Under the pieces are notes generated by a model. The model saw nothing but the letters and a program-made list of their open reading frames with translations, was not told the origin of the DNA and did no database searches. Shown here piece after piece: positions 12,188 through 62,172 of a stretch of DNA of 64,000 nucleotides; position 1 is the first letter of the stretch, and each line of letters begins with the position of its first letter. The DNA comes from a virus: the UHGV virus genome UHGV-0286546; one strand, written 5' to 3'. The position numbers and the translations under genes were made by a program.

Positions 12188-13771
12188 TTAGGCGTGAGCT
12201 TGGTTGAAGTTAGCAATAGCACCACGTACCAAGTACTCAGGCTTATTGATGAACAAATCATAGAAAGACATAGCGCCTTTGTGATTCTTCAAATTAGGAG
12301 CTTGGAAAGTAGGTGTGAAATAGAGCGGGATCCACTCAGCTAAAACAATTGCCGAATCACCTAACTGGAATCCTTTGAAACCGAAGACAACCTGATCAAC
12401 CGGTAATGTCTTAGTATAAGGAACAGCGATAACAGCAATAGTACCGTCACGCAATGTACCAGCTAAGTAAGGTCCAATCGGTTTCTTAGCTTCAGGAGCT
12501 GCTTTGAAACCTTCGATTTGTTCTACGATTGTTAAACCTTGACGAGCAGAAACAATCATGAATTCAACTGTACCACGACCAGCAACTTCTTGGATAATAC
12601 CACGAGCACTAGAAATAGTAGTTGTATAAGCAGAATATCTCTGTTGTAAGGTTAAGTTAGCACCGTTTGCAGCACAATCAAATGTCAAATCAGCGTTCGG
12701 AGTAGCAGCAGCATATACACTGTGGATCAATGACAAATCACGTTCCCAACGAATAGTACCAGCAATTTGGTTAGCAATCAATTCATCAGTGTCAATTGCT
12801 AAGTGAGCGTTCATTACCAAACCAGCTGCAACACTGTAAGAACTCATTAACGGGTGCTGCTTAGCTAAAATAGGCTGATTAGGAATATCGAACTGAATCT
12901 TACGAATCAAATCAACATCTGTTTCAACATCAACAGCAGCTTCGAAACTCAGCATAGCATTCTCAGCAATAGCATCAGCATACATAGTAGCATCCAATTT
13001 CAATGTAGCTACACCAGTCTGAGCATTAACTGTACCAGAAACACCACGACCAATTACATTGTATGCACCACTGTTAACACCATCCAACTGCGCAGAACCA
13101 TTACCATAGTCACGTGCAATCTCTTTACCTGCTAAACGAACGATGAACGAACCAGCACGTACTTTAACTGTAGCATCAGAAGGCAATGCAGCAGACGGAT
13201 TAGCAGTTACATCAGCAGTAGCCTGAACATCTGTATACCCAATGAACTCAGAAGAATACGTACCATCTGTCGGATTCTCAAATACAATGTCACCAGCTTC
13301 AACACCAGCAGCGTCTTGAGAATAACGTGTTTTGATGATGAAGATTTGGCCAGACTGACGATCTAAAGCTTGAATATCAGCAATGTAGTTTGCTACCATT
13401 TGCGGATAAAATACATTAACGATATCAACGACTTTAGGAGTCAAGCTTGCAACACCAGGGCTGAGCAAAGAAACAGCAGAAGTAGAAGCGTTACCGCCAA
13501 AATCTTCGTGCAGGATATTGCGACCTGTGTAAGGAGTATCTGGCTGTTGAGCGATGTATTCAGCAGTATTTTCTAAGAGCTGAACCATAGTAGCGGCTTG
13601 GTATTTAGCTTCTTTAGAGTCAGATTCCAGAGCTTTTACGAGAGCCGGGCAGCGTTTGCCGAGAGTAGATTCACTGAGAACTTCTGCAGCGTGAGCGATA
13701 CCTTTATTGATTCTTTCGCTACGGGCTTTAGCAACCAGTGACTTATTTTCAACTTTGGTTAAGATAGACAT
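12188..13771 (-). CDS. gp23: major capsid protein, T4 gp23-like
   Basis: 527 aa. Recognisable gp23-family segments (…PKVVDIVNVFYPQMVANYIADIQALDRQSGQIFIIKTRYS…, …GRGTVEFMIVSARQGLTIVEQ…, …AIVLAEWIPLYFTPT…). GC content clearly higher than surrounding genes, consistent with high expression. Confidence 0.85.
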   Translation of the reverse strand: MSILTKVENKSLVAKARSERINKGIAHAAEVLSESTLGKRCPALVKALESDSKEAKYQAATMVQLLENTAEYIAQQPDTPYTGRNILHEDFGGNASTSAVSLLSPGVASLTPKVVDIVNVFYPQMVANYIADIQALDRQSGQIFIIKTRYSQDAAGVEAGDIVFENPTDGTYSSEFIGYTDVQATADVTANPSAALPSDATVKVRAGSFIVRLAGKEIARDYGNGSAQLDGVNSGAYNVIGRGVSGTVNAQTGVATLKLDATMYADAIAENAMLSFEAAVDVETDVDLIRKIQFDIPNQPILAKQHPLMSSYSVAAGLVMNAHLAIDTDELIANQIAGTIRWERDLSLIHSVYAAATPNADLTFDCAANGANLTLQQRYSAYTTTISSARGIIQEVAGRGTVEFMIVSARQGLTIVEQIEGFKAAPEAKKPIGPYLAGTLRDGTIAVIAVPYTKTLPVDQVVFGFKGFQLGDSAIVLAEWIPLYFTPTFQAPNLKNHKGAMSFYDLFINKPEYLVRGAIANFNQAHA

Positions 13772-27954: not shown

Positions 27955-29184
27955 ATGACAAAAATTACAGTACTTGATAATGGTTTTAAGATTATTACCG
28001 AAAAAAGAAATTTCAACAATGTTTCTATGGGTGTTTTTGTAAAGGTCGGGCTTTTTAATGAAACAGATGAAATGAATGGTATATCTCACTTTCTTGAACA
28101 CATGGCATTTAAAGGTACCAAAACCAAAACAGCTCAAGAATTAGTAGATAGTATTGAAAAACTCGGTGGTAATTGTAATGCATTCACCAGTACTACACAT
28201 ACAGCATATTTAGTTAACCTTCTTCCTGAGCATTGGAAAGCAGGTGTAGATTTCCTTTCTGATATTATTAAAAACTCTACTTTCCCAAAAGAAGAAATCG
28301 AAAGAGAACGAAATGTAATCCTTCAAGAAATTGCTATGTATGAAGATAATATCAGTAGTGTTAGTTGGAATGAAATCATTAGTAATGCCTTTAAAGGACA
28401 AGCTCTAGGTAGAAAAGTAATCGGTACAGAAGAAAACGTAAAACGATTTACTAGAAATGATTTAATTAAATATATGACAGATGGATATGTTGCCAATAAA
28501 ATGACTTTTTCTATTTGTGGTAATGTTAAACACGAAGAAGTTGTAAAATACGTAAAAGCTGCTTTTTCTAATTTAAATACAGAATTTAAGTTACAGGAAT
28601 TTTCTTCTAAATACAAATCACCTAAAAAGAGAAAAGAAATTGAAACCAAGTTTGATCAGGCACATGTTTGTTTGACTGTTCCTGGACGTAAAATGTTCGA
28701 AAGAAGTAATTATGTTCATTCCATTTTTAATAATATTCTTGATGGTGGTATGTCAACACGGTTGTTTCAAGAAGTACGTGAACGTAATGGATTAGGATAT
28801 GCAACTTCTACTATTGCAGAAAGTGAACCTAATACCGGTATTTATGGCGTTTGGGCAGCAGTTGATAAAGAAGACATTGAAAAAACAGTAGAAGTCTTAG
28901 GAGCCACATTTAAATCAATGATGCAAAATATTGGTGACGATGAGTTTGAAAAAGCCAAGAATATCACTTTATATAATCTTACAAGTAAAGAAGATGATTG
29001 TTATTCAGTAATGGATGCTAATGCAGTTTGTGGTATATTTGATAAGAAACGTAAATCATTAAAGACTAAAAAAGCAATCATTAATAAAATTACAAAGCAA
29101 GATGTTATTGAATATGCTAAATCTTTGTGTGATAAAAAAATGGATATTGTAATTGTTAAACCTAAAGTCGAAGAAAGGATTTAA
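27955..29184 (+). CDS. M16-family (pitrilysin/insulinase-like) zinc peptidase
   Basis: Inverted zinc motif HFLEHMAFKGT (HxxEH) near the N-terminus. Downstream conserved Glu in ERNVILQEI. About 410 aa, typical for a single M16 unit. Confidence 0.7.
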   Translation: MTKITVLDNGFKIITEKRNFNNVSMGVFVKVGLFNETDEMNGISHFLEHMAFKGTKTKTAQELVDSIEKLGGNCNAFTSTTHTAYLVNLLPEHWKAGVDFLSDIIKNSTFPKEEIERERNVILQEIAMYEDNISSVSWNEIISNAFKGQALGRKVIGTEENVKRFTRNDLIKYMTDGYVANKMTFSICGNVKHEEVVKYVKAAFSNLNTEFKLQEFSSKYKSPKKRKEIETKFDQAHVCLTVPGRKMFERSNYVHSIFNNILDGGMSTRLFQEVRERNGLGYATSTIAESEPNTGIYGVWAAVDKEDIEKTVEVLGATFKSMMQNIGDDEFEKAKNITLYNLTSKEDDCYSVMDANAVCGIFDKKRKSLKTKKAIINKITKQDVIEYAKSLCDKKMDIVIVKPKVEERI

Positions 29185-29186
29185 AA

Positions 29187-29903
29187 ATGAAAAAGGAAAA
29201 AACTTTGGAACCTAATGAATATTTTCATGGATTAAAAGATAAGATTCAAAAGACTGATTTGGCTACAATTGAAGAAGATATTAAGATGGTAACAAATCTC
29301 ATCGAAGAAGCTAAAGAAATTGGTCAAAATGCTCTTGCTAAAAACTATGAAGATCTAGCAATTACTTATTTTAAAGAAAGAGTCATTTTTAAGCATGGAT
29401 ATTCTAAATATGTTAAAAAAGATGATATTGAAAAATATATTAGAAATGTTAAAGATCAAGTAGTTAAAATTTGTGAATTGGAATTGTTTCCGAGGACTTT
29501 GCCTAAAGAAGTATCGGATAAGATTAAAGAGTTGAAAAAACTTAAAATCTTTGATGATATGTGGGTTGTTTTTATTGACTATGAACAAAAAGAAAACCTT
29601 ACAAAAGAAGAAAAGGAAATGAGATCAAAGAATAGAGACCCTATCCTTTTTGCTACTTTTGAAGAATGTATGGATCGCTTTTATTTCATTGCAGATTGGG
29701 ATGACGATATTTGTGATTTAAGATTTGAAGATATGGTTACAGAATTAAAGAAACTTGATAAAAAATACGCTGTTAAAGAGATCATTAAAGACGGCGAAAA
29801 ATATATGCAAGAATTAATTAAAGAGCGTAATCATAAACCGGTGAAACTTTCAGATAAGATTAAAGCAACATGGAAAAGTCTGTTAGATATTTGGAAGGAA
29901 TAA
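29187..29903 (+). CDS. hypothetical protein (238 aa)
   Basis: ORF coupled to the upstream gene. Confidence 0.55.
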   Translation: MKKEKTLEPNEYFHGLKDKIQKTDLATIEEDIKMVTNLIEEAKEIGQNALAKNYEDLAITYFKERVIFKHGYSKYVKKDDIEKYIRNVKDQVVKICELELFPRTLPKEVSDKIKELKKLKIFDDMWVVFIDYEQKENLTKEEKEMRSKNRDPILFATFEECMDRFYFIADWDDDICDLRFEDMVTELKKLDKKYAVKEIIKDGEKYMQELIKERNHKPVKLSDKIKATWKSLLDIWKE

Positions 29904-34197: not shown

Positions 34198-34230
34198 AAG
34201 GGGGATTGTTTATTTCCCCCTTCTTTTATA
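34197..34230. terminator. bidirectional terminator (aaggggga-N8-tccccctt) between convergent genes
   Basis: Perfect 8-bp stem flanked by A/T runs on both strands. Confidence 0.65.
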
Positions 34231-34681
34231 TATCAATAACTGCAACACTTGCTTCTTCTGCTAATTTTAATGATAACTCTAAATTGTCTTTCCAAAATTG
34301 TGATACAGCATTAAGATCACTTGAATTTCTATAGTAAACTAGTTTTATGCCAGATTGAATAATAAGTGACATACAATGCACGCACGGAGGATAACCATAA
34401 ACGAAAATAGAACAATCTGTCAAATCTTGTTTTGCATGTAATATCGCATTTTCTTCAGCGTGTAACATTAGCATACGTTTCATTTCTTTATCTTGTAAAC
34501 GCTCTTCCGAATCAACAATACCTTTTGCAAAACCATTAAAGCCGGTACTTATAATTCTTTTGTTTTTATCTACGATTACAGCGCCAATTTTACGACTTGG
34601 ATCTTTAGACATAGTAGAAACAGTCTTAGCAATAGTCATAAAGTGCTCAAGCCACTGTAATTCTCTTTTATATTTTTCCAT
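34226..34681 (-). CDS. dCMP deaminase (deoxycytidylate deaminase)
   Basis: Zinc-binding HAEENAI and PCVHC motifs of the cytidine/dCMP deaminase family. Size about 150 aa. Confidence 0.8.
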   Translation of the reverse strand: MEKYKRELQWLEHFMTIAKTVSTMSKDPSRKIGAVIVDKNKRIISTGFNGFAKGIVDSEERLQDKEMKRMLMLHAEENAILHAKQDLTDCSIFVYGYPPCVHCMSLIIQSGIKLVYYRNSSDLNAVSQFWKDNLELSLKLAEEASVAVIDI

Positions 34682-47181: not shown

Positions 47182-47769
47182 TTATACGATTCTTACAAAT
47201 TTTTGTGTATCTGTATCGTATTCAATTACATTAAACGTTCCATGCTCATAATTAAGCCCGTGAAGCTCCCATCCGATATCTAGAGCATTCATCACTCCTC
47301 CGTGAGAAACAATCAATGCACAGTCAAAAAATGAGTCCCAAAGGCCATTAATACAGGCATTTACCCGTTTAAAGGTTTCATGCTTACTTTCACCACCAGG
47401 AAAGCTTAATTCCCAAGTATTTTTTGTTCCCCAATACATTTTATCGATTAACAAAGAATACTTTTTACGAACGTCTTCCATTTTTTGTCCTTCTGCAATA
47501 CCAAAATCACATTCTCGTAATTCGTTTTTAGTAATTACAGAGATAGGCTTAGAGTAGGCTTCGACAATGTGTTTTGCAGTTTCTTGTGCACGTAATAACG
47601 GCGAACAATAAATCACTTCAATATTAAATTTTCGTAAAGCTTGTCCGACTTTCCATGCCTCTTCTTTACCTTCTTGTAATAACGGTAAATCTGCATAAAC
47701 ACCATTCCAAATTTTAAACTTGTTAGCCAAAGTTAAACCATGACGAACAATAATCAGTTTTTTCTTCAT
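47182..47769 (-). CDS. histidine phosphatase superfamily protein (phosphoglycerate-mutase-like)
   Basis: IIVRHGLTLANK (RHG catalytic motif), later SPLLRAQETA and a C-terminal SHGG. Confidence 0.65.
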   Translation of the reverse strand: MKKKLIIVRHGLTLANKFKIWNGVYADLPLLQEGKEEAWKVGQALRKFNIEVIYCSPLLRAQETAKHIVEAYSKPISVITKNELRECDFGIAEGQKMEDVRKKYSLLIDKMYWGTKNTWELSFPGGESKHETFKRVNACINGLWDSFFDCALIVSHGGVMNALDIGWELHGLNYEHGTFNVIEYDTDTQKFVRIV

Positions 47770-47919: not shown

Positions 47920-50070
47920 TTATTTACCCAATTGTTCTTGAATCTGTGAATAACTCATGAACTTACGATTTTTCCAATCGTGCTCACGTCTGGCTTTATT
48001 CCAACCTTCAACTTTAGAAAAGTAACCAATAACACGAGTATAGTGATTAACATTCTTAGATTGACATTTAGGACATTCATCTACTTTACCTTTATGAACA
48101 TGACCACAATCTTGACATTCTACATATGTACTATTAATCGCAAAATGAGCCATTCCATATTTAACAGCATCTGAAATTAAAGTTTTAGCTTGAGAAGATG
48201 TAATCTCGGAATCGACGTTAATATGAACAATTGAACCACCTGTCATAAGCTCATTAATTTCACCGTCACGTTTCATCTTTTCGTAAATAGTATGATCTTC
48301 CCACAAACTACACCACTGATTAGCATAGATATTATATTCACCCTTGACTAAGATCTTATCTGCTTTTGCTAATTTAGGTGCCATACCTTCTGCTGGAATA
48401 GCTTCAATATTCCAAATGATATTTTCTTTTTCTGCGGCGACTTTACATTCGTTATTAAAGTAAACAAGAAAATCTTTCATATAATCATAGTCTGAATGAT
48501 TAAACTTCTTCTTTAAAATTTCATCTGCTTCAACATAGCCAACACAACCAAATGTAGAGAACATGTGTGACATATTAATCCAACCGTTAGTAATCCAAGG
48601 TTGAGTACCGCATTTTTCTAACTTATGAATTAATACACGGTGTGCTTTAAGAATTTTAGACATTTCTTCAACACGTTCACTAATAATAGCTTTGAAATCA
48701 TCATAGCTATCGGCTTCATAAGCAGCACGTGCAAAGTTAAGAGTAACAACGCGGTGAGAACCTAATGAAACTTGTGAACCTCCGAAAGAGTTAACACCAT
48801 CAGCCATAGCAATCATATCAGAATCTGATAACAGCCTACAACAGGACGCTACCTTCGTACCTTCTGAACAATACACATTGAATTTAGAAATATCTTTCTT
48901 AGTAACATAACCATATAATTTGTCGCTTTGAGATACTAATTCACGTTTACCAGTTTCTTTATCTACATCAATAGCTAAATTAATAGTAGTTACTGGAAAA
49001 GGAAATTGAAGACCATTACGAAGAGGATCACCAGCATCAAAAATATCGATATAAATTTCTTGTAATTCTTCGATGTAATCCAATACAAAATCAGTAAAGG
49101 CTTCTTTAGTATTTGGCAGTTCATTATCTTCTACGATTGCAGCTTTCTTTTCAAAATACCAAGCATAATTATCTTCATTAATCAAGTTTCTAAGTTTTTC
49201 TCTATCGAAGCAAGAAACATTTGTAAATGGAGATTCTACTGCAGATCTACTATAATGATTAACTGTATGAATAAACTGCTGAAAACAATTTACAATATAT
49301 TTACGTAATTTTTTATCTGTACGCAATTCATCTAATGTAATTCTTTCACGATAAATAGCCAAGTGTGCTGTATCTAAGAAGAAAGTACCGACTGCAACCG
49401 CACCTGCTACGTTATATGAAAGTTCACGAATTGTATCACCTAAAATGGATACATATGTTGAAACTCTTTTTGCTTGACTGGAATGTACTTGACCAAATTT
49501 ACGACCTTCCATTACTAATTTAGAAGCATCAATACAATAGCAATACGGCATAAGAATTTTTGTACTATCGTTCAAAGCTAAGGAATAATCAAACATAGAA
49601 GCCATACATTTTTTAGCTGTTTCTTTACCATATAATTCTTTAATTGTTTGATAAAGATAATCATAACCTGCTAATTTTTTATATGCTAAAATGGCTTCTG
49701 TACAAATACCTTCCATATTAATAGATGTTTTATTAGCATTTGGATCTACTGAAATATCATTAGCAGTTTGAAGATCACCAAATGTTAAAAGTGAAATAAT
49801 TGATAATGGATCGAAGTATTTTTTAGATAACCCGTGTATTTCAAGGATTTCTTCAACTTTTGTATTGAGTTCTTCTTTATCTTTTACACCATATTTAGAT
49901 TTAATGGATTTTGCTAAACATTCTGAAATATTTTTAATAGTGCGTGTAGTATTTGCTTCTGAAAGACTAATATCAATAAGCTTATTCATTTCTTCTTGAT
50001 ATGGATTTTCTTCAAGATAGTTAAACTTAGGATATTTTAAAGAAATTGCTCTTTTATTATTCGGGCTCAT
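47920..50070 (-). CDS. nrdD: anaerobic ribonucleoside-triphosphate reductase (class III RNR) NrdD
   Basis: 716 aa. C-terminal Zn-ribbon CQDCGH…CPKC. Glycyl-radical motif TRVIGYFSKV. Confidence 0.8.
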   Translation of the reverse strand: MSPNNKRAISLKYPKFNYLEENPYQEEMNKLIDISLSEANTTRTIKNISECLAKSIKSKYGVKDKEELNTKVEEILEIHGLSKKYFDPLSIISLLTFGDLQTANDISVDPNANKTSINMEGICTEAILAYKKLAGYDYLYQTIKELYGKETAKKCMASMFDYSLALNDSTKILMPYCYCIDASKLVMEGRKFGQVHSSQAKRVSTYVSILGDTIRELSYNVAGAVAVGTFFLDTAHLAIYRERITLDELRTDKKLRKYIVNCFQQFIHTVNHYSRSAVESPFTNVSCFDREKLRNLINEDNYAWYFEKKAAIVEDNELPNTKEAFTDFVLDYIEELQEIYIDIFDAGDPLRNGLQFPFPVTTINLAIDVDKETGKRELVSQSDKLYGYVTKKDISKFNVYCSEGTKVASCCRLLSDSDMIAMADGVNSFGGSQVSLGSHRVVTLNFARAAYEADSYDDFKAIISERVEEMSKILKAHRVLIHKLEKCGTQPWITNGWINMSHMFSTFGCVGYVEADEILKKKFNHSDYDYMKDFLVYFNNECKVAAEKENIIWNIEAIPAEGMAPKLAKADKILVKGEYNIYANQWCSLWEDHTIYEKMKRDGEINELMTGGSIVHINVDSEITSSQAKTLISDAVKYGMAHFAINSTYVECQDCGHVHKGKVDECPKCQSKNVNHYTRVIGYFSKVEGWNKARREHDWKNRKFMSYSQIQEQLGK

Positions 50071-50082
50071 TTTTATTCCTCG

Positions 50083-50586
50083 TTATTTTTTAAAAGTTAA
50101 TATACCATCGTTAGAAAGTAGGTTATAGTCACCATCATAAAAATTTTGATTAGGACTTGCCAATATAAAGTTTGAATCTGTTTTTTCTGATTTTCTACAA
50201 GAATTTTTATCAAAAGTGCCACATTTAAAGAATTTAGCTCCTTTTAGGTTTAAACTTTTAACAACTTCTATTGAATATCCAGTATAGATACAAACATCAA
50301 AATCATCTTTGAGATTGTTTAAAAGATATTTCGTATACTCTAGATTTGATTTGTAAAGGGGATCTCCTCCGATTAAAATTACTTTATTTGTCATAGCTCT
50401 TTCGCAGTAATCCTTTACTCTATTTAATATCTCTTCTTTTGTTTCAGAATAGGTATCTTCGTATTGTAAATTCATGCTATGACAACCTGGACAATGATGT
50501 TCGCAACCTGTCATTATTACGGCTATCGCATTGCCATCCGGAGTAGGATAATCAAGCCAAGTTTCTTCTAAAGCTATTGTAAACAT
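50083..50586 (-). CDS. nrdG: anaerobic RNR activating protein NrdG (radical SAM)
   Basis: CEHHCPGC (CxxxCxxC) cluster. Start chosen at ATG 50586 (RBS aaggaaaaagttaATG). About 167 aa. Confidence 0.75.
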   Translation of the reverse strand: MFTIALEETWLDYPTPDGNAIAVIMTGCEHHCPGCHSMNLQYEDTYSETKEEILNRVKDYCERAMTNKVILIGGDPLYKSNLEYTKYLLNNLKDDFDVCIYTGYSIEVVKSLNLKGAKFFKCGTFDKNSCRKSEKTDSNFILASPNQNFYDGDYNLLSNDGILTFKK

Positions 50587-50727
50587 TAACTTTTTCCTTA
50601 AATACTGTTTATAATGAATAGCCAAGGAAACCAAGGCTTTTGATATTATGAATGTATATTATAGAACACGAAGTGAACTATAATTCTACTTGGGAATATT
50701 TCACTTTTATTAATTCTTACGGAGATA

Positions 50728-52773: not shown

Positions 52774-52974
52774 TTATTCTTTTACTTCAACTTTTTTGTA
52801 CCGTTTACAATGACAAAAACCCGGTTCTGTTTGATTACGAAAATCTAAGCACATACATTTAGTAGAATCATCTTTATATGCAAGACAAGGACAATATCCA
52901 TCATTGTTTTTTACTTTTTCTGAAATCTCTTTAAAAAATTTCTCGTCTGGGTTTTTTTCAATTTTAAGTTTCAT
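52774..52974 (-). CDS. ferredoxin-thioredoxin-reductase catalytic-subunit-like mini-protein (CPC…CxC…CHC)
   Basis: Cys spacing CPC-x11-CMC-x13-CHC matches the FTR catalytic-chain signature. Confidence 0.5.
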   Translation of the reverse strand: MKLKIEKNPDEKFFKEISEKVKNNDGYCPCLAYKDDSTKCMCLDFRNQTEPGFCHCKRYKKVEVKE

Positions 52975-53558
52975 TAGTTATCTCCATTTAAATGTTCCCA
53001 AATATCCTCAATATTAATTGGTGAATATTTAGCTGTGTTTTTAAAATTCGAACTCGTATCAACACCTATATGTGCAGCTTTGAATCCTAATTTGTTATAA
53101 ATATCGTCATAATTATTTATATCATGAATATGACCATATAAATGTATCGAATCTTTTCTAAATGCACCATCAAATTCTAAAATAGGAAAATGCTTTAAAA
53201 TAATAGTAATTTCTTTACCATTATACAAAGTCCATTTTAATTTATGATAATCTCTTACACTTTGCCACAAATTATTGTTAAGAAATTTATATTGGATTTT
53301 TGTTCTATCGTGATTTCCAAGAATTAGGTGCTTTTGACCATTCAACTGTTTTAATGTATTTTCAATTTTTTCTTGATCATAATTCATCGAAAAATCACCG
53401 AGATGAAAGACTATATCACCTTTACCAACGACTTTATTCCAATTATTAATAAGAGTTTGATCATGTTCTTCAATGGTATTAAAAGGTCTTTTATTACCTA
53501 GTTTTAAAATATTATTATGACCAAAATGTGTATCTGATGTAAAGAATAAATTAGGCAT
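52974..53558 (-). CDS. calcineurin-like metallophosphoesterase
   Basis: Motifs SDTHFGH, GDF, GNHD, HGH. Confidence 0.7.
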   Translation of the reverse strand: MPNLFFTSDTHFGHNNILKLGNKRPFNTIEEHDQTLINNWNKVVGKGDIVFHLGDFSMNYDQEKIENTLKQLNGQKHLILGNHDRTKIQYKFLNNNLWQSVRDYHKLKWTLYNGKEITIILKHFPILEFDGAFRKDSIHLYGHIHDINNYDDIYNKLGFKAAHIGVDTSSNFKNTAKYSPINIEDIWEHLNGDN

Positions 53559-53561
53559 ATA

Positions 53562-53747
53562 TTAACCCCACATTACATAGTGCTTAATAAAGTGTTTTAT
53601 ATAATACCAGTATCCATCTTCGTCAATAAACAATTGATAATCTTTGCCATCAAGAACATCTATTACACGATCTGGTATTTCTGACCAACGGGCTACTGTT
53701 TTTATTCCGTTTTTAAATCTTTCAAATATATACTTATTTGTCATCAA
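53562..53747 (-). CDS. hypothetical small protein
   Basis: ORF only. Confidence 0.4.
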   Translation of the reverse strand: MMTNKYIFERFKNGIKTVARWSEIPDRVIDVLDGKDYQLFIDEDGYWYYIKHFIKHYVMWG

Positions 53748-54465
53748 AATCTACCTTGATATCTGTTAGCCTAAATAATGTACTAGACGATTTAATATTT
53801 TGTATTCTACCGTTTAATTTTAATTTTAAATTATTATCTTTAAAATCTTTTATAACAGTCTCTTCGAATACCTTTTTAAAGAATTCATACATACATTTAT
53901 TGTCTTTAAAGGTAATTCTATCGGCATAATCGATTTTTAATCCCCATTTGTCACATAAAGCTTTAACTAATCCACCTAATACTTCTTTAACAATGGTATA
54001 GTTGGCTTTTTTTTCTTCAGCCTGTTTTTGTCTTCGTTTATCTGCACTACTTAAATTTACAACTTCTTTAAATTCAGCTGTATCAAAAATTTCAATAGAA
54101 AATTCTTCATCTTCTGTCATAACATCATAATGAATATTTGCATATGAGCTATTCTCAAATTTAATTGTATATGTATTTGGAAGTGTACCGCTCGTAACTA
54201 AGGTATATAATAAATCGGAACCAGAAAAATAATTGTTGCTTCCCGGATTTAACTTTTTATACTCTGAGTGTGCAGCAAATAGATCACGCTTTGTAAAAAA
54301 ATATCTAAAATGGGAAAGAGATTGCATAACAGATGTATTTTCTAATCTAGCCGGTCTGGTTTTAAAAGATGTATAACGCCAACGAAGCGCTCCTTGTCGC
54401 TCATTGTCCCTTCTCCACCAAGCTTTTTCTTGTATTACTTCACTACGCATTCTCTTTCCTTTCAA
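53734..54465 (-). CDS. hypothetical protein (243 aa) inside the nucleotide-modification cluster
   Basis: ORF with no recognised motif. Confidence 0.5.
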   Translation of the reverse strand: MKGKRMRSEVIQEKAWWRRDNERQGALRWRYTSFKTRPARLENTSVMQSLSHFRYFFTKRDLFAAHSEYKKLNPGSNNYFSGSDLLYTLVTSGTLPNTYTIKFENSSYANIHYDVMTEDEEFSIEIFDTAEFKEVVNLSSADKRRQKQAEEKKANYTIVKEVLGGLVKALCDKWGLKIDYADRITFKDNKCMYEFFKKVFEETVIKDFKDNNLKLKLNGRIQNIKSSSTLFRLTDIKVDFDDK

Positions 54466-54474
54466 TTGTTTATT

Positions 54475-55365
54475 TTATACCGCAATATCAAATTTTACTC
54501 TTTCGCCGTGTTGATATCCTTCAAGACTAGCCATACCCGGCATAAAATTAAATACTGTCGCAGAAGGATCTAATACCAACTTAGGTAATTCATATTGTTC
54601 TTTTCGCCATGTCGGTAACATCTCTTTTACTTTTTCTACATGATTATCATAAATGTGACAATTACACAAATTTAAAGTTACTGTACCGGGTTTCATATTT
54701 ACAGTTTGACACATAAGATGCAAAAGTAAAGCATAAAATGACAAATCAGTCGGAACTCCAAGTATTGTATCAGCAGATCGTTGATTGACTGTAATATGTA
54801 ATCTACCACCTAAATAATTAAACTGAAATACATAAACACAAGGCGGAAGTCCCATAGTATCTGCGTTTGCTGGATCCAAAGCAGTAATTAACAAACGCCT
54901 ATCGTATGGATTTTTCTTTAACGTATCAACAACATGTTGTAATTGATCAAAACCTTGTCCTGTATAATCGGTATTTTCATCTATATATTTGGCGCCAAAA
55001 TGTCTATAATTGAAGCCATAAATATTTCCTAAATCATTTTCTTGTAATTGAAATGCTTTACGCTCTTCATCTGATAAGCCAGCAGGTACTTTTTTAGGAT
55101 TACACCATTCTTTCCAATATCCACATTCACGCTCAACAAAAACCTTCTTAGATGTTATGCCTTCGAGAAAACAGCTTACTTCACCTTTCATGCTTTTAAA
55201 AAACTGCTGACGAAAGGTAAGCATAGGAAAACCGTCTTTTAAATCCCAAGTAAGAACTTTATTTAATCTTACTAAAGTGTTATTACCTGTACGACACGGA
55301 TTAATTTCTCCGTTATTTAAAATATCTTCTACAATATCTAAATATTGATTATCATATGCACTCAT
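54475..55365 (-). CDS. ThyA-family pyrimidine hydroxymethylase/methylase; predicted deoxycytidylate hydroxymethylase rather than thymidylate synthase
   Basis: ThyA-fold signatures LPPC(V)YVFQF, NQRSADTILGVP and CHIYDNH. Asp (GVPTDLSF) sits at the position of ThyA Asn177, as in T4 gp42 (GFRNDYAW). No His after the catalytic Cys. Confidence 0.6.
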   Translation of the reverse strand: MSAYDNQYLDIVEDILNNGEINPCRTGNNTLVRLNKVLTWDLKDGFPMLTFRQQFFKSMKGEVSCFLEGITSKKVFVERECGYWKEWCNPKKVPAGLSDEERKAFQLQENDLGNIYGFNYRHFGAKYIDENTDYTGQGFDQLQHVVDTLKKNPYDRRLLITALDPANADTMGLPPCVYVFQFNYLGGRLHITVNQRSADTILGVPTDLSFYALLLHLMCQTVNMKPGTVTLNLCNCHIYDNHVEKVKEMLPTWRKEQYELPKLVLDPSATVFNFMPGMASLEGYQHGERVKFDIAV

Positions 55366-55384: not shown

Positions 55385-55993
55385 TTATTTAATCCATCGA
55401 ATAATAGGTTCACTTGTACAGTCTTTTTGCCATACATACCAACAATACGCTGCAGCTCCAGAATTTTTAAATGTACCACCACCTTTACCACAGCCTTGTC
55501 TATCTACATGAACATAAACATATTTTGGTGGATATTGTTTAAATAAAGAATAACGTTTAGCTGATTCAAGAAAAGTTAATTTCATAAACATTACTACTAA
55601 ACCATTATCTTTTACTGCTTCTATACTTCTTTCAACAAATTCACGAGCTTTCGAATACGGAGGATTTGTAATTATACAATCAAATTTATTATCATACTTT
55701 TTATTAGTTAAAAAATCTAAACCTGATTCTTCACCATATCCTCTGTCAACTAAATCTGTAGAAAAAACTGTATATCCATTATCTTTGAGAACTTTACTTA
55801 TTGCACCGTCACCACATGCGTTTTCCCATATAGTATTAGGTAAAGTTAGGTTTGTTTCTTTTGCTACATTAAGAAATAATTTTACAGAATCAGGATGAGT
55901 AGCATAAAAATCGTTTTCTTCTACTTCTTCTTCCTTTTTCCTGTGATTAGTAGTATAAAAGCCTTTATTTCCACCAGTCCAATCTTTACTCAT
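55385..55993 (-). CDS. DNA N6-adenine methyltransferase (Dam-like)
   Basis: Motif IV IITNPPYS. SAM-binding-like region. Start chosen at ATG 55993 (RBS ggaaggattttattacATG). Confidence 0.65.
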   Translation of the reverse strand: MSKDWTGGNKGFYTTNHRKKEEEVEENDFYATHPDSVKLFLNVAKETNLTLPNTIWENACGDGAISKVLKDNGYTVFSTDLVDRGYGEESGLDFLTNKKYDNKFDCIITNPPYSKAREFVERSIEAVKDNGLVVMFMKLTFLESAKRYSLFKQYPPKYVYVHVDRQGCGKGGGTFKNSGAAAYCWYVWQKDCTSEPIIRWIK

Positions 55994-56648
55994 GTAATAA
56001 AATCCTTCCAAAATCATATTTAAACTGATCAATTAAAAAATCCGAGCCGTTAACCTGTTTAAATAGCATATATGTATTCTTTTTATTGTAAGGTTGTATA
56101 AAACGAGCTTCAATATATTTTTTAGCTTCTGTAATACTATGAAAAGAATGTAAGGATTTATCATAGTATTCAGTTGACCATTTTTTATATTTAGGTGTTA
56201 CAATACAATATTCCATTTTACCGTCTGGATATTTTACCATTACATATAAATCATCATTAGAATAGGTATGACGACTATATACTTTAATACACTCGGCAAG
56301 ATTACGTGTTTCATCTGTTATTTCTAAAGCATTACCAGCTAAAGAAAGAATTTGTACTGTACATTGTCCTAAATCAATAGGTACATTTAAATCTATTTCT
56401 TGAGTATGTGTTGCGTAAATAAAAAGAATATCTGATCTATTAGCAGTCAAATTTCTTAAAATAGAGTATTGAGATGTATTTGAAAAATTATGAGCGGAAT
56501 GTGAAGGTGTTTCTTTTTTAATTTCTAAGACTACTGTCAAACCATTATTTAATTGCAATATACCATCAATATCACTAGCACTTACACAAAATGGCATTAT
56601 TGTATTAAAATCTAAAGGTTGTTCAATAGCTTTTATATTACGAATCAT
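55986..56648 (-). CDS. hypothetical protein (220 aa) inside the nucleotide-modification cluster
   Basis: ORF with no recognised motif. Confidence 0.5.
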   Translation of the reverse strand: MIRNIKAIEQPLDFNTIMPFCVSASDIDGILQLNNGLTVVLEIKKETPSHSAHNFSNTSQYSILRNLTANRSDILFIYATHTQEIDLNVPIDLGQCTVQILSLAGNALEITDETRNLAECIKVYSRHTYSNDDLYVMVKYPDGKMEYCIVTPKYKKWSTEYYDKSLHSFHSITEAKKYIEARFIQPYNKKNTYMLFKQVNGSDFLIDQFKYDFGRILLHE

Positions 56649-56665
56649 CTCTTTACTTTCATATC

Positions 56666-57301
56666 TTACATATTTTCAAGATACCATAATACATTTTCTT
56701 GTAAAGCAGAAATCGTACTATTATTAAAAAATACACAATCTGGATTATCTACTTCAATCCAATCTCTTTCTGAAGGATGAACAGCATCGAGCATGACTTT
56801 TTCTTTTTCCGTAAGATCCATACCTTTATTATACTTTTCCGCAGCTTCCCAATATTCCGGTCTATCTCCACGTTCTACTCTTACAATTGTTCCACCTATA
56901 CTTCTAAGCATTTCTAGTTCATTTGGAAATCTAACATCTGTAATAACAAAATTATGCTCGTTATCGTCTAAAATTTTCTTTTTTACATTTAAATCCCAAA
57001 TATGTTTAAGAAAAGTAGGTCTAACTATATCTGTACCAATAGTAGTTAAAGCTCGACGCGGCGTAAATTCAAAACCAAATGCGTTAGACCAATATATGTC
57101 AGGTTGCTCTCTCCATTCTCTACTTTCTACTGTACGACCACTTAACATTTCTCGGGACCAACCAAACATTACACTAGCAACATCTTTTACACAATCCGCA
57201 AAAGCTAACGTAACAAAACTAGGGTCGTTCTCACAAATAATCTTTGCAATGGTATCTTTTCCTGAACCTTTTAAACCAGTAATTCCAATGATTTTTCTCA
57301 T
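56666..57301 (-). CDS. deoxynucleoside monophosphate kinase (T4 gp1-like)
   Basis: P-loop GLKGSGKDT. Overall collinearity with T4 dNMP kinase blocks (GxKxSGKDT, (P/C)(I/V)KD(A/V), LxxIGTDI, VITDVRFPNE). Confidence 0.7.
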   Translation of the reverse strand: MRKIIGITGLKGSGKDTIAKIICENDPSFVTLAFADCVKDVASVMFGWSREMLSGRTVESREWREQPDIYWSNAFGFEFTPRRALTTIGTDIVRPTFLKHIWDLNVKKKILDDNEHNFVITDVRFPNELEMLRSIGGTIVRVERGDRPEYWEAAEKYNKGMDLTEKEKVMLDAVHPSERDWIEVDNPDCVFFNNSTISALQENVLWYLENM

Positions 57302-57547: not shown

Positions 57548-58069
57548 TTACTTAGTACCTGTCGATCCGAATGACCCAGACTGTCTCTTTGTCTTTGGGC
57601 CTTTTTCATATTGTTCAGGCTTTACATACTTGAGAGCTTCACTAGATACATTTTCAATAATACCCTGTGTAATTTTTTCACCTGGATTGATTACTGTTGC
57701 GTAAGTCTTAATACCAAATAACATTCCAATAAAACCTAAAATTCCAGGATAACGTACTTTAATATCTTGACTGCCTTTAACTACTTTAAACAAATTTAAA
57801 TGGATTTCGCCTCTGTAACCCGGATCAATTACGCAAGCTCCTCTTACCAAACCTTTTTTAACTGAAACTCCGGATTTATTTTCGATTCTAAAAGTTTTAT
57901 TTTTTTCAACTTTAACTTTAATACCAGAAGGAATGTTAACTTGTTCATTCATTCTAAGAATATAAGGTTTTCCATTATTCCAATCGTTAGGTACATAAAA
58001 ATCCAATCCATTATCTTCATCTCGATTACCAGTAGGATCTTTAACGTCTCTTACTTTTGTATATATCAT
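57548..58069 (-). CDS. dut: dUTPase (trimeric dUTP diphosphatase / dCTP deaminase superfamily)
   Basis: VIDPGYRGEI motif 3 and C-terminal RQSGSFGSTG motif 5. Confidence 0.75.
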   Translation of the reverse strand: MIYTKVRDVKDPTGNRDEDNGLDFYVPNDWNNGKPYILRMNEQVNIPSGIKVKVEKNKTFRIENKSGVSVKKGLVRGACVIDPGYRGEIHLNLFKVVKGSQDIKVRYPGILGFIGMLFGIKTYATVINPGEKITQGIIENVSSEALKYVKPEQYEKGPKTKRQSGSFGSTGTK

Positions 58070-58153: not shown

Positions 58154-61100
58154 TTATTCATTACTCTCGTCACTTTCAATCAAATTTTCTTTGTTTCTTT
58201 CAAAGTAATGATATTTGGAGCGTAAAACGTATTTGTGATCTTTGTCTAATTGAATAGGTATCAAAGTAAGTAGTTCATCATACTTCACTGTTGACATTAA
58301 GACAGGGCTTAATTTTTGAACAGCAGCGAATCTACCCCCTTCTGACCAATCCTGTTTGTTTATATGCTTAATTAATGCTTCTTTGGTTATATTCTTACCT
58401 GTAAACTTCTTCGGTAAAACAACTTGCTCTTTAAGTTTAGGTAATTGTTCGATTAACTCGTCTACATTCCAAACATACTTAGATTCACAATATAATGTTT
58501 GCATCTCACCTGTTTTTGGATTAATTTGATTAGGTGTTCGTGTATACCTATTTGCTGTACTACACATTTCATCTGCACCTGTTAAATGTAACTTATACAT
58601 CAAATAATACCAGATAATTTTATATTCATTTACTTTAACTGGTCTACTTAAACGTACAACAATATGATATGATCTATGCCCTGACCAAACAACGCGATAC
58701 AGCTTATCTTTTATTGGTTCGATTAGCTCTTCTTGTTCTTCTTTGGTTAAATAATCACATTCAAATAACAGATTTTGATTATAAACACCTGCCCTGGTTG
58801 GATATTCGTCTAAGTTGTCTTTAAAAGAATTTAAGGCCTGTAAATAAGCAGGAGTTTCACTTTTGACATAATCTTCGGCATAGTATGGACCAAATACTGA
58901 TTCTGCATCTAATAAGTTCTTAGCGAAGTTAATATATACATCTGTGTTTATCTCTTCCATTGTTAAAGAGTTTACATCATCAACCAGTAACATATTTTGA
59001 GTAAAACCTGTAATTTTACTTTCTGTGTTTACAATCTCTGTCACTGGATCACCGAACTCATCTAAAATAGGTTTGCCCTTTTCATCCTTTTTAACAACTT
59101 TTCTAGCATTTCTACTTCTACTATAATATTCTTGTGTGCGCGGATCGTTTTCAAAACCTACAACAAAAGCTAAACTACGACCATCTAACTTTTCTCTTGT
59201 TATTCCGTCATAAATTTCGCCAATACTGTGTTTTTTATAAATGACAAAATCACGAGGAGAGATACCTTCTAATGGTGGGCGTTCAGTTACAAGGTTACAT
59301 AAAATTTTAGAAGTAGCTTTACCAAATTTTTCATTAGACAGATAAAAGCCTTTTGATTTGATTTTTCCATTACTAAATTGACAATAGTAATTATTAACAT
59401 TGTTCTGTTGTAAAATAGCAATATCATCAAATTCGAGGACTAACCCTGTTTCTTCCATCCATTTTTCAGCAATAGGCATAAAATCTACGTCTGCTTGCTT
59501 TTCAATCATAATACCATCAGTGTTTGTCTGTATGATATTAAAACCAGCCTCATATAATCTTTTTGCCAAGATGAATAGTAACAACTGTCCATAAGTACAA
59601 ATCGTACTATTCGACCAAGAATCAAACAACGCATTATACTGACTTAGCATTGCCCCAATTGATCCATTAAGAATAAGTTTAAGACCCAAGTTGAGTAATG
59701 TATTTCCTTCTTTTTTTGCTTTTAATCTTGTATGATAAACGTCTTTATATGCATCTGGATTTGAAGCACCTCTTGACATTAAATTATATACCACTAACAA
59801 AGATGGATATAGAGAAGCAACGTCCATATTAACTAAATTCTTACTTCCGTATTTAATTAAAGCTTGATGTAATCCACCGAATCCAAATTGATATAAATGT
59901 CCTTCATCATTACCACCCATGTAATATTCAAATTTTTCTGTAATATAATGAGGATTCGTCTGGTTTTTAATATAGAAATCTAACAATGGAGTACCAGCTA
60001 ATTCTTTATAAGCTAATTCTGGAATACTATAATAAACTTTTTTACCATTGATTTCTTTGTAGGTATTGTCTGGATTTGGTTTAGCATCTTCACCACACAA
60101 AACTTTACTTGCAAATGACGCTGCTTTGTTAATAAGAGTTTTTGCGCCCATTCCAAATTCAATAATGAGGTTCCAACGAATATCATAAGAATCTCTTGCA
60201 AACTCTCTAAACTTGTGTTTAGGATTTTCTTTTGCCTTTTCAATATCTTCTGGATCTGGTAAAAAGAGATCTCTAGTGTTATCCACGTCCATTTCACAAT
60301 ATTGTTCTACTTCTTTACGCTGTTTCATAGAAAGTGAAGTACCAATATTAAATGGAACAGAAGAATCGTAATTTCGTCTATTAAGTACTGACATTGTTAA
60401 TTTTTTCAGAGAATTTCGTCTAATATCAAAAGGCAGATGAAAAGTTAAGTCCCAAGATAAAAACGTTGGAGCTATTTCATATCTTTTTTTAGTTTTAAAT
60501 TCTGGTCGTAAAGGATAACGCTTTGCTAATTCGTGATCTTCAATAATTAAGTCAGAATATTCTTTAACTGTTGGAGCAGAATCATCTAAATATGGATATA
60601 ACATGGCATGCTTAATTACTACATCGTCATATGCAGCATTATTAAATCCAATTAAAATTTTATCTTTTATCCATTTACTTAATGCTTGGCCATCATTCCA
60701 ACATACTACTTTGTTTTTACCATCAACCGTTTTAGCAATAAATAACCAATCGTATTTAAAGACTTCGATATCGTAAATCCATTCATATTTTTTAGTAAAA
60801 TTATATCCCTGCTCAATAATTTCTTTTTCGGAGAGTATATTTTTTAATTTTGCTTTAAATACATCTTTATACCACTTTGTATACCATTCTGATGGCTCAC
60901 CTTTTTCATCACCGTAGACTTTAAAGGTTTTATCTTCGCTTGCGCTACCCTCTTGTTCTGAGATAACAGTTATTTGATCTTTATAACCAAACAAGGATAC
61001 AATTTTATTTAAGTTTTCTTCATCTGAACTATAAACAGGTACAGTGGTTAATAACTCTTTTAATGTACTAACCCATTCTCTTTTTAATTTGTCTGAGTCT

Positions 61101-61825
61101 AATAAACAAATCTCATCATTTCTGCAATAGAGTAATTTATCATTTGTATAACAATCGTATATTTTAAAGTACTCTATTTTTTTACCTTCTTTGCATAACT
61201 TAGCTTCGAAATTAAAACCTTTTATTAATTCCTTTTGGTATAATTCAATCAATTCTTTAAATTTACTGATAATTTCTACTGTACTGCAATACGGGGATTT
61301 TTCAATAGTTTTACCTACAGAACTCGAATTTAAGATACTAGGAATTCTGTGTAGGTTGTCATCGATTTCTGGCAATACAACGTAAGGTATCTCAAAGCTT
61401 TTTGTTTTACTTATACGGTCATCAGAATAAACAATGAGATTGTCTTTTTCTCTCAGCATAACGCGAATAGTAGGTTCAACAAAGAAACCTTTTTCATAAT
61501 CTTCGAAAAATGCTTTATATGCACTATATCCAACAAATGCAAAAACGAGAGTATTGAAATCTAAAGTACCCTTAATGAAATAATTATAAAGAAAATCGGC
61601 CATTACATTTTTAGTAAATAAACCGTCATAATTATTATCCTTGACGTATGTAACGTGTGTGTCTGCTGACTTAAATTTACTTTTAAAGCAATTAGATAAA
61701 TATGTCATACCAGAAGGAGAATCGAATATTTCTTCTTTGTCCTTGGGTAAATACGATTCTGAAATTAATACCAATTTTGGACCTAATGTACTTTGATATT
61801 CCTTCTTACTACGTACGTTTGTCAT
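58154..61825 (-). CDS. family-B DNA polymerase with N- and C-terminal extensions
   Basis: Exo I YDIEV, Exo II FNNAAYDD, Exo III YCEMDVDN. Motif A DVASLYPSL, motif B KLILNGSIGAM, motif C IQTNTDGIMI. About 350-aa N-terminal and about 250-aa C-terminal extensions. Confidence 0.8.
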   Translation of the reverse strand: MTNVRSKKEYQSTLGPKLVLISESYLPKDKEEIFDSPSGMTYLSNCFKSKFKSADTHVTYVKDNNYDGLFTKNVMADFLYNYFIKGTLDFNTLVFAFVGYSAYKAFFEDYEKGFFVEPTIRVMLREKDNLIVYSDDRISKTKSFEIPYVVLPEIDDNLHRIPSILNSSSVGKTIEKSPYCSTVEIISKFKELIELYQKELIKGFNFEAKLCKEGKKIEYFKIYDCYTNDKLLYCRNDEICLLDSDKLKREWVSTLKELLTTVPVYSSDEENLNKIVSLFGYKDQITVISEQEGSASEDKTFKVYGDEKGEPSEWYTKWYKDVFKAKLKNILSEKEIIEQGYNFTKKYEWIYDIEVFKYDWLFIAKTVDGKNKVVCWNDGQALSKWIKDKILIGFNNAAYDDVVIKHAMLYPYLDDSAPTVKEYSDLIIEDHELAKRYPLRPEFKTKKRYEIAPTFLSWDLTFHLPFDIRRNSLKKLTMSVLNRRNYDSSVPFNIGTSLSMKQRKEVEQYCEMDVDNTRDLFLPDPEDIEKAKENPKHKFREFARDSYDIRWNLIIEFGMGAKTLINKAASFASKVLCGEDAKPNPDNTYKEINGKKVYYSIPELAYKELAGTPLLDFYIKNQTNPHYITEKFEYYMGGNDEGHLYQFGFGGLHQALIKYGSKNLVNMDVASLYPSLLVVYNLMSRGASNPDAYKDVYHTRLKAKKEGNTLLNLGLKLILNGSIGAMLSQYNALFDSWSNSTICTYGQLLLFILAKRLYEAGFNIIQTNTDGIMIEKQADVDFMPIAEKWMEETGLVLEFDDIAILQQNNVNNYYCQFSNGKIKSKGFYLSNEKFGKATSKILCNLVTERPPLEGISPRDFVIYKKHSIGEIYDGITREKLDGRSLAFVVGFENDPRTQEYYSRSRNARKVVKKDEKGKPILDEFGDPVTEIVNTESKITGFTQNMLLVDDVNSLTMEEINTDVYINFAKNLLDAESVFGPYYAEDYVKSETPAYLQALNSFKDNLDEYPTRAGVYNQNLLFECDYLTKEEQEELIEPIKDKLYRVVWSGHRSYHIVVRLSRPVKVNEYKIIWYYLMYKLHLTGADEMCSTANRYTRTPNQINPKTGEMQTLYCESKYVWNVDELIEQLPKLKEQVVLPKKFTGKNITKEALIKHINKQDWSEGGRFAAVQKLSPVLMSTVKYDELLTLIPIQLDKDHKYVLRSKYHYFERNKENLIESDESNE

Positions 61826-61926: not shown

Positions 61927-62172
61927 TTAATCGAGACCTGCAGCTGCTTCATACAAGGCATATATGTGCTTCTCTTCATCACGTTCTGATTTTGCTTTAG
62001 CTCTTTGTTTTACAACGTGACGCAAAGCTTTAACATCAAATCCTGCACTTTTTGCTTCTGCGTAAATGTCACGAATATCACCAGAGACGGCTTTTTTCTC
62101 TTCTTCTAAATGCTCAATACGTTCAATCAAAGATTTCAAACGTGCATTATCAATTCCACCGATTTCAGTCAT
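61927..62172 (-). CDS. GapR/DUF2312-like small DNA-binding protein
   Basis: LKSLIERIEHLEEEKKAVSGDIRDIYAEAKSAGFDVKALRHVVKQR matches the DUF2312 (GapR) signature. GC content higher than neighbours. Confidence 0.6.
   Translation of the reverse strand: MTEIGGIDNARLKSLIERIEHLEEEKKAVSGDIRDIYAEAKSAGFDVKALRHVVKQRAKAKSERDEEKHIYALYEAAAGLD

Follow-up and report, generated by a model that had tools for sequence, protein, structure and literature searches.

The 64,000-nucleotide stretch of the virus genome UHGV-0286546 analyzed here (the window) encodes, at positions 54475–55365 of the minus strand, a ThyA-fold enzyme that is publicly annotated as thymidylate synthase (TS). Judging by its specificity residues, its substrate is very likely the cytosine nucleotide deoxycytidylate (dCMP) and not deoxyuridylate (dUMP). 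With moderate confidence, based on comparison with characterized enzymes, we predict it to be a folate-dependent dCMP C5-methyltransferase, with 5-methylcytosine (5mC) carried by the virion DNA. An earlier reading of the same DNA, made from the letters alone (the sequence-only reading), had proposed a dCMP hydroxymethylase and hence 5-hydroxymethylcytosine (5hmC) or a further modified cytosine in the virion; a C5-modified cytosine is still a reasonable expectation given the specificity residue, but the features bearing on the product read methyl and not hydroxymethyl. Both this kind of enzyme and its two-residue signature are known from published work; the new element is that the enzyme belongs to a large, tight, uncharacterized clade in jumbo phages of approximately 245 kb, which is closer to true TSs than the enzyme of phage Xp12.

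54475–55365, minus strand: ThyA-fold enzyme of 296 aa, predicted dCMP C5-methyltransferase (5-methyl-dCMP synthase); public annotation, thymidylate synthase.

The open reading frame (ORF) starts with ATG, preceded by a ribosome-binding site AAGGA 8 nt upstream. The Pfam family PF00303 (Thymidylat_synt) covers its product end to end (E = 5.8e-72, profile positions 1–266 of 266), and the motifs GLPPCV, NQRSAD, NCHIYDNH, and GVPTDLSF are all found, in agreement with the fold and motifs quoted in the sequence-only reading. The NCBIfam thymidylate synthase model TIGR03284 scores 192 bits, above its curated equivalog cut-off of 108.35; this explains the TS label in NCBI and JGI, the model being blind to substrate specificity. 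The top phmmer matches among PDB sequences are all genuine TSs (best 6k7q, E = 9e-56). Identity to the query is approximately 36–45% for eukaryote-type TSs, 32.6% for Escherichia coli ThyA, and 28.5–29.4% for the Xp12 and PaMx74 enzymes, that is, not above ThyA, while T4 gp42 and RB69 gp48 share 18% and 19%, respectively. PHROGs were tried as a discriminator of chemistry and dropped, as a single group, phrog_160, holds the query, T4 gp42, RB69 gp48, and the Xp12 enzyme.

Residue calls are based on HMMER alignments to crystallized TSs and MAFFT alignments to E. coli ThyA, which agree with each other. The numbering follows an E. coli ThyA sequence in which 21 literature-numbered residues all occupy their published positions. 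Reference enzymes were taken from annotated genomes: T4 gp42 (NC_000866), the TS homologues of Xp12 and PaMx74, RB69 gp48, and SPO1 gp29. Counts for the clade refer to the best 120 of 857 homologues at E ≤ 1e-20, retrieved by a search of 5.8 billion proteins; these 120 are 61–99% identical to the query and come from contigs of up to 244 kb. Two sites bear on the substrate:

54745–54747, minus strand: codon GAT of the specificity residue Asp207 (E. coli Asn177, T4 gp42 Asp179), placed by the alignments.
54835–54840, minus strand: codons of Cys176-Val177 (E. coli catalytic Cys146 and His147), placed by the alignments; the Val177 codon is 54835–54837.

In the HMMER alignment, LGVPTDLSF stands opposite LGVPFNIAS and LPPCV opposite LPPCH, gap-free in the vicinity, and Asp179 of T4 gp42 falls in the same column as Asp207 of the query. 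Hence, in place of the canonical Asn177 and His147 the query has Asp207 and Val177, and both substitutions named by the sequence-only reading hold when ThyA and gp42 are aligned together. Asp177 is present in all 120 clade members, whereas position 147 is occupied by Leu in 110, Met in six, and Val in four of them, and by His in none; such conservation is due neither to chance nor to sequencing error.

These two positions rank top in the MetaGPA analysis for separating TS homologues encoded on viral contigs experimentally found to be cytosine-modified from those on unmodified ones (PMC8670742). The single replacements N177D in E. coli TS and N229D in Lactobacillus casei TS yielded dCMP methylases producing 5-methyl-dCMP (the 1992 studies by Hardy and Nalivaika and by Liu and Santi, both as cited in PMC8670742), and the Xp12 enzyme and five out of seven metagenomic Asp177 homologues gave 5-methyl-dCMP in vivo (bioRxiv 10.1101/2024.12.05.627091). 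At the same time, Asp177 is common to three chemistries, hydroxymethylation (T4 gp42), methylation (Xp12, PaMx74, and the N177D and N229D mutants), and C5-hydroxylation (RB69 gp48) (PMC8670742; bioRxiv 10.1101/2024.12.05.627091; PMC13326640). Thus, it sets the substrate, dCMP instead of dUMP, and not the product, and cannot serve as the hydroxymethylase signature that it was first taken for.

An ordinary or dual-specificity TS, converting dUMP to dTMP with perhaps some methylation of dCMP in a phage with essentially canonical DNA, is quite improbable. Its score with the TIGR03284 model (192 vs. 108 bits), the NCBI and JGI annotations, and the retention of all TS catalytic residues except 147 and 177 are what such an enzyme would show; E. 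coli TS N177D mutants retain some activity toward dUMP, and the dCMP-deaminase-family gene and dUTPase, both encoded in the window, classically supply dUMP to TS. Against it stands the role of Asn177 as the established determinant of uracil specificity, replaced by Asp throughout the clade together with the loss of His147, at the two positions most strongly correlated with cytosine modification in viral metagenomes. Moreover, the nearest proteins from cultured phages, Cantare gp49 and RHEph22 gp054, are canonical TSs that keep His147, Asn177, Phe176, and Ile79, indicating that the changes in the clade are derived and under selection.

The clade is well separated. In an exhaustive HMMER scan of 1.84 billion representatives at 50% identity, all of it is contained in one representative (P0002, 494 bits), and the next one scores 233 bits at 39% identity. 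Among the 149 nearest representatives outside the clade, 119 have the His147/Asn177 pair, and approximately 19 have Asp177 with a variable residue 147. In a rough neighbour-joining tree, Asp177 and Asn177 lineages are interleaved. No close cultured relative was found by megablast with 10 kb, nor by tblastn against 50,697 phage records, where the top identity is 35%, and no characterized phage directly informs the query clade; the signature peptides of the clade had no match in the MetaGPA supplements. The Cantare gene (a Brevibacterium phage, 35% identity) lies in a deoxynucleoside monophosphate (dNMP) kinase–TS–MazG arrangement (L013:3187-5534), and a note in its record mislabels it as “ThyX.”

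With cytosine as the very likely substrate, the product has to be read from other parts of the protein, listed below together with the corresponding features of three reference enzymes:

54847–54849, minus strand: codon CTT of Leu173 (E. coli Leu143), Asp or Glu in hydroxymethylases and in 5-hydroxy-dCMP synthase; from alignments.
54769–54771, minus strand: codon GAT of Asp199 (E. coli Asp169), Asn in 5-hydroxy-dCMP synthases; from alignment.
55105–55116, minus strand: Trp84...Trp87 (E. coli Trp80 and Trp83), with roles in the folate pocket and in shielding the intermediate; from alignment.
54478–54558, minus strand: C-terminal segment of approximately 27 residues ending ...FDIAV, the TS lid closing over folate; from alignments.
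T4 gp42: Asp143; Asp169; Trp83 absent; lid of approximately 27 residues absent; Asp177.
SPO1 gp29 (dUMP hydroxymethylase): Asp143; Asp169; Trp80 absent; unrelated C-terminal extension; Asn177.
RB69 gp48: Glu143; Asn169; Trp80 and Trp83 absent; C-terminus truncated; Asp177.

The catalytic and phosphate-binding equivalents of TS (R21, E58, Y94, R126, R127, C146, R166, S167, D169, H207, and Y209) are all present in the query, and Cys146, Arg21, Arg126′, Arg127′, Arg166, and the Glu58/Tyr94/His207/Tyr209 network are kept in all 120 clade members as well. According to PMC13326640, methyl products correlate with a bulky hydrophobic side chain at position 143, while Asp or Glu, admitting or activating water, is typical of hydroxymethylases, both T4-like and MilA, the latter having Asp; in the clade this residue is Leu without exception. 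Trp80 is found in 120 and Trp83 in 118 of the 120 sequences. Compared to the T4 dCMP hydroxymethylase, whose folate site is more open, E. coli TS is extended at its C-terminus by 27 residues, the last six of which close over folate (PMC5175136). The query aligns through the very end of E. coli ThyA (...FDIAV vs. ...APVAI), with A263 and V/I264 of the lid present in 120 out of 120, whereas gp42 stops approximately 50 alignment residues earlier; in MilA the lid segment is replaced, as in SPO1 gp29, and gp42 and RB69 gp48 lack it. Under the in silico rule for methylases drawn from bioRxiv 10.1101/2024.12.05.627091 and PMC13326640, the query has the expected combination of an Asp177 scaffold with Trp80, Asp169, a non-acidic residue 143, and the C-terminal segment. 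On each available criterion it is a TS scaffold with a switched specificity residue; as this configuration is known for dCMP methylase, we read the product as methyl.

A third chemistry on the same fold has to be considered here. RB69 gp48 and DLP3 gp80 are flavin-dependent 5-hydroxy-dCMP synthases with a diagnostic D169N replacement (a 2026 NAR paper, PMC13326640). That the query would hydroxylate C5 in this way, or would form an undescribed product in a remodelled folate pocket, is very improbable indeed: position 169 is Asp in all 120 sequences and position 143 is Leu and not Glu, and the conservation of the pterin-binding Asp169 and of the folate-lid residues argues for normal use of methylenetetrahydrofolate (CH2-THF). 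In its favor, recent work has revealed unexpected chemistry on the TS fold (PMC13326640), the clade-wide replacements at positions 79 and 176 described below alter the cofactor pocket, and a CofE-like γ-glutamyl ligase gene beside the phage gene for serine hydroxymethyltransferase (SHMT) hints at unusual cofactor handling.

For the predicted dCMP methylase the following scheme can be drawn. Cys176 would attack C6 of dCMP, with Asp207 hydrogen-bonding to N3 and the 4-amino group of cytosine and the hydrophobic Val taking the place of the His that serves O4 of uracil, and the methylene of 5,10-CH2-THF would be transferred to C5. Leu173, Trp84, Trp87, and the C-terminal Ala-Val lid would close the active site as in a true TS, so that the exocyclic methylene intermediate would be reduced by the tetrahydrofolate (THF) hydride and not hydrated, and the products would be 5-methyl-dCMP and dihydrofolate (DHF). 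The adjacent dNMP kinase and then the host nucleoside diphosphate kinase would convert 5-methyl-dCMP to 5-methyl-dCTP, which the neighbouring phage DNA polymerase would incorporate, 5mC replacing some or all cytosine in the virion DNA. The phage SHMT, encoded just outside the window, would regenerate the one-carbon donor, and the dCMP-deaminase-family enzyme may either convert 5-methyl-deoxycytidine (5-methyl-dC) nucleotides to deoxythymidine (dT) nucleotides, as was suggested for Xp12, or produce dUMP from dCMP.

The genes referred to in this scheme and the other members of the block are:

34226–34681, minus strand: dCMP/dCTP-deaminase family protein with the zinc motif HAE...PCxxC (PF00383, E = 5e-20; phrog_174, E = 5e-43).
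47920–50070, minus strand: anaerobic ribonucleotide reductase NrdD (PF13597, E = 5e-73).
50083–50634: probable NrdG activase adjoining NrdD (Fer4_12/Radical_SAM match beside NrdD in the related loci L005 and L007; one such match among the pooled window ORFs).
52974–53558, minus strand: small metallophosphoesterase, encoded downstream of the TS homologue at a distance of two to three genes (PF12850, E = 7e-6, slightly under the gathering score).
53734–54465, minus strand: conserved, fast-evolving protein of approximately 240 aa directly downstream of the TS homologue, with weak but significant orthologues.
55385–56032, minus strand: NPPY-motif DNA methyltransferase, amino-type, probably N6-adenine (phrog_799, E = 4e-63; weak Pfam matches to Eco57I, EcoRI_methylase, and Dam).
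55986–56648, minus strand: conserved protein of 220 aa between the kinase and the TS homologue (orthologue with 44% identity at the same position in L005).
56666–57301, minus strand: dNMP kinase of the T4 gp1 type (PF21448, E = 3e-18; phrog_139, E = 4e-47).
57548–58069, minus strand: trimeric-fold dUTPase (PF00692, E = 9e-10; phrog_135, E = 5e-20), conserved in L005 and L007.
58154–61825, minus strand: DNA polymerase of 1223 aa (phrog_1252, E = 2e-89), syntenic in L005, L007, L009, and L010.

The conserved order of the block is RecA, a GapR-like protein, DNA polymerase, dUTPase, dNMP kinase, the 220-aa protein, the TS homologue, the protein of approximately 240 aa, metallophosphoesterase, and NrdG/NrdD, and the synteny of the DNA polymerase, dUTPase, dNMP kinase, and TS homologue is kept across contigs of 137–245 kb. 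The context genes listed by the sequence-only reading (dNMP kinase, dUTPase fold, dCMP-deaminase family, and DNA methyltransferase) are real, as seen from their Pfam and PHROG matches, but part of this context is not diagnostic for 5hmC. The kinase, with orthologues of 75% (L005) and 47% (L007) identity in syntenic loci, is predicted to phosphorylate the modified dCMP, yet it fits any non-canonical dNMP and is not diagnostic. The dUTPase has canonical motifs III (IDPGYRGE) and V (RQSGSFGSTG) and resembles, in alignments to PDB sequences, the enzymes of staphylococcal phages; on the grounds of these two motifs, its assignment as a dCTPase of the T4 gp56 type was rejected. The NPPY methyltransferase is unrelated to C5 chemistry; it is conserved in the clade (84% identity in L005, 49% in L007), at a shifted position, so that its placement is variable. 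The DNA polymerase would consume the modified deoxynucleoside triphosphate, and the metallophosphoesterase (56% identity to its L005 orthologue) could, speculatively, be a nucleotide phosphohydrolase supplying dCMP.

The deaminase is 34% identical to that of Xp12, and the PDB entries matching it best are those of human DCTD and of the PBCV-1 dCMP/dCTP deaminase (7fh4). Enzymes of this family associated with Asp177 homologues deaminate 5-methyl-dC nucleotides, supplying dT, but the preference for 5mC is scattered through the family (bioRxiv 10.1101/2024.12.05.627091), and sequence alone allows either dCMP or 5-methyl-dC nucleotides as the substrate here. A deaminase combined with a single Asp177 TS homologue fits a 5mC-to-T scheme of the Xp12 type no worse than it fits the T4 scheme. 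Encoded on the minus strand within a long block of plus-strand genes, it looks like an isolated cassette, possibly acquired independently or regulated separately.

Two conserved proteins flank the TS homologue, both with no match in Pfam, PHROG, NCBIfam, or PDB and with only four homologues each. For the downstream protein (53734–54465), orthologues with 23% identity (E = 9e-13 and 4e-8) are encoded at the corresponding position of L005 and L007. In the 220-aa protein, the invariant residues D26/D28...E42-I-K44 on predicted β-strands are reminiscent of a PD-(D/E)xK nuclease core; this is a speculation, and the AF2 model is poor (predicted local distance difference test score, pLDDT, of 62).

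The folate genes lie beyond the end of the window, within the approximately 84 kb examined (the window and a 10-kb flank on each side, about one third of a genome of approximately 245 kb). The SHMT gene (PF00464, 389 bits; L010:5691-7052, plus strand, and L009:5693-7054) is approximately 11–12 kb from the TS homologue and approximately 3 kb past window position 64000, upstream of RecA. Two genes from it is the CofE-like F420-0:γ-glutamyl ligase (PF01996, 153 bits; L010:3607-4653, plus strand), with no match among PDB sequences, which may act in cofactor (poly)glutamylation. A 336-aa ORF between these two genes (L010:4665-5675, plus strand) was considered as a dihydrofolate reductase (DHFR) and rejected, having a zinc-metallopeptidase-like HELQH motif and no family match. 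The presence of SHMT indicates that the phage invests in regeneration of 5,10-CH2-THF, in keeping with a TS homologue that is used very heavily. No paper connecting phage SHMT with base hypermodification was found in a literature search. Neither a canonical ThyA nor ThyX was found in the 84 kb.

Several observations weigh against a methyl product. The folate/p-aminobenzoic acid pocket is not fully canonical, since all 120 clade members have Tyr instead of Ile79 and Ala, Thr, or Ser instead of Phe176, and residue 176 is small or polar also in T4 gp42 (Asn) and SPO1 gp29 (Ala); judged from the sequences, the two changes look compensatory, as if an aromatic residue had shifted from 176 to 79. The rule for position 143 is a correlation, and the proven methylase of Xp12 aligns there with a polar residue, Asn or Gln. 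The query clade, approximately 29% identical to the Xp12 enzyme, is not clearly sister to Xp12/PaMx74. The deaminase lies approximately 20 kb from the TS homologue, compared to within 3 kb in most characterized 5mC systems, and Pfam revealed no DHFR in the 84 kb, whereas phages of the Xp12 group encode one beside their enzyme; the DHFR role could be filled by the host, or by a gene elsewhere in the genome. SHMT is needed for either chemistry, and its presence without DHFR fits a THF-releasing hydroxymethylase slightly better.

Such a dCMP hydroxymethylase, in which the methylene on C5 would be hydrated to give 5-hydroxymethyl-dCMP and THF, and the virion DNA would contain 5hmC or its derivative, is, in our estimate, fairly unlikely. 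It would share Asp177 and the adjoining dNMP kinase with the T4 scheme, would suit the SHMT gene and the small residues in place of Phe176, and could find its tailoring enzymes in the two conserved flanking proteins without family matches. On the contrary, Leu143 is invariant in the clade while gp42, SPO1 gp29, and MilA have Asp, and the lid and the Trp80/Trp83 pair, lost or replaced in all three of these known hydroxymethylases, are kept, so that all product-side features, Asp169 included, are methyl-like. In the window and its flanks, Pfam revealed no glycosyltransferase, carbamoyltransferase, or other enzyme for tailoring a hydroxyl group, and a dCTPase of the gp56 type was not found either, the dUTPase-fold protein resembling an ordinary dUTPase. 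Hence, dCMP methylation is the reading that we retain, with the moderate confidence given above.

The enzyme goes beyond the Xp12 paradigm in that the phage has its own one-carbon supply (SHMT and the CofE-like ligase) and no DHFR seen in the 84 kb, together with the fixed I79Y and F176A/T/S replacements. This could mean that a closed TS scaffold performs non-reductive, DHFR-independent chemistry, or that there is a full thymidylate bypass, with dT made via deamination of 5-methyl-dC nucleotides. An unlikely extension is that the tight clade, comprising hundreds of metagenomic variants, represents an independent origin of cytosine-directed TS in jumbo phages, approximately 245 kb in size, of gut or rumen Succinivibrionaceae, with C5 of cytosine substituted throughout the genome.

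The window encodes a gp23-like major capsid protein (12188–13771), NrdD, RecA, and an NAD-dependent ligase, and belongs to a jumbo, myovirus-like phage of approximately 240–245 kb with approximately 30% GC. It matches exactly an ENA scaffold of 480 kb (L009) at two 40-nt anchors near the right end, and the same species is represented by a contig of 245,217 bp (JAIFIN010000003.1) in the NCBI assembly GCA_019973075.1. A member of the 90% protein cluster is annotated as “MAG: thymidylate synthase [Succinivibrionaceae bacterium],” and the phage is possibly one of Succinivibrionaceae. In the ENA scaffold (ZELL14-1 scaffold_5, 480,241 bp; L009/L012), genes from the two ends of the window are 175 kb apart, compared to 61 kb in the window itself, which points to a two-copy concatemer of a genome of approximately 240 kb and fits circularly permuted or terminally redundant DNA; other contigs of 240–245 kb support this size.

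Mobile elements vary between strains. The window has an uninterrupted NrdD of 716 aa, which in relatives is split by inserted ORFs, at L005:14717-17695 by a NUMOD3 homing-endonuclease-like gene and at L006:4876-7964 by a DUF7487 gene, and an intein-containing MJ0330_N protein is present in L010 and not in L009. Other genes of the window include an M16 insulinase-type peptidase (27955–29184, plus strand; PF00675, E = 7e-42, and PF05193) with an adjacent ORF at 29187–29903, and a putative metallopeptidase (741–2117, plus strand) combining DUF2201_N with a VWA-like DUF2201 domain. The pooled Pfam matches of the window also contain Hsp20, a response-regulator receiver domain, the GapR-like DNA-binding protein (probably 61927–62172), a histidine phosphatase (probably 47182–47769), and an I-TevI/NUMOD1 homing-endonuclease-like ORF.

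If the prediction is correct, a widespread uncultured group of gut or rumen phages of approximately 245 kb replaces cytosine with a C5-modified base, and this would affect evasion of restriction and CRISPR, recovery by methylation-sensitive library methods, and laboratory handling of the DNA. Curated “thymidylate synthase” models and the NCBI and JGI annotations pass an Asp177 enzyme for which this name is probably wrong. Asp177 by itself does not reveal the kind of cytosine modification, and its reading must be supplemented with positions 143 and 169 and the C-terminal lid. A natural dCMP methylase near the canonical scaffold would be a good subject for the study of specificity switching in a drug-target family.

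Compared to known systems, the query shares with T4 gp42 the fold, the catalytic Cys, the equivalents of Glu58 and Tyr94, the specificity Asp, and the accompanying dNMP kinase, but gp42 has Asp143 and lacks Trp83 and the lid of approximately 27 residues, leaving an open folate site. T4 also encodes the gp56 dCTPase, glucosyltransferases, a separate canonical Td, and DHFR, none of them seen in the 84 kb. With RB69 gp48 and DLP3 gp80 the query has the TS fold and Asp177 in common, and none of their Asn169, Glu143, loss of Trp80 and Trp83, and C-terminal truncation.

The closest parallels are on the methylase side. As in the dCMP methyltransferases of Xp12 and PaMx74 and the metagenomic Asp177 homologues, the query combines the ThyA fold, Asp177, and a non-His residue 147 with retained Asp169 and Trp80; as in the Xp12 system, it is full-length with a C-terminal segment, is accompanied in the phage by a gene of the dCMP-deaminase family, and is predicted to make 5-methyl-dCMP. 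The genomic settings differ: in Xp12 the DHFR, deaminase, and TS genes are adjacent, whereas no such neighbourhood, with DHFR and deaminase within approximately 3 kb, is seen here, the query phage having SHMT instead; and the Xp12 phage is a siphovirus of approximately 60 kb with high GC, in contrast to a jumbo myovirus-like phage of approximately 245 kb and 30% GC. Where the Xp12 enzyme has Pro147, Phe83, a polar side chain at 143, and a C-terminus of its own, the query has Val147, Trp83, Leu143, and the canonical TS C-terminus, and is thus closer to true TS. It is also similar to the engineered E. coli ThyA N177D and L. casei TS N229D, where an Asn-to-Asp replacement in a canonical scaffold redirects methylation to dCMP. 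Unlike these point mutants, the query clade has additionally fixed H147V/L/M, I79Y, F176T/A/S, and C168A; with all other catalytic residues conserved, the query looks like a natural version of the engineered enzymes.

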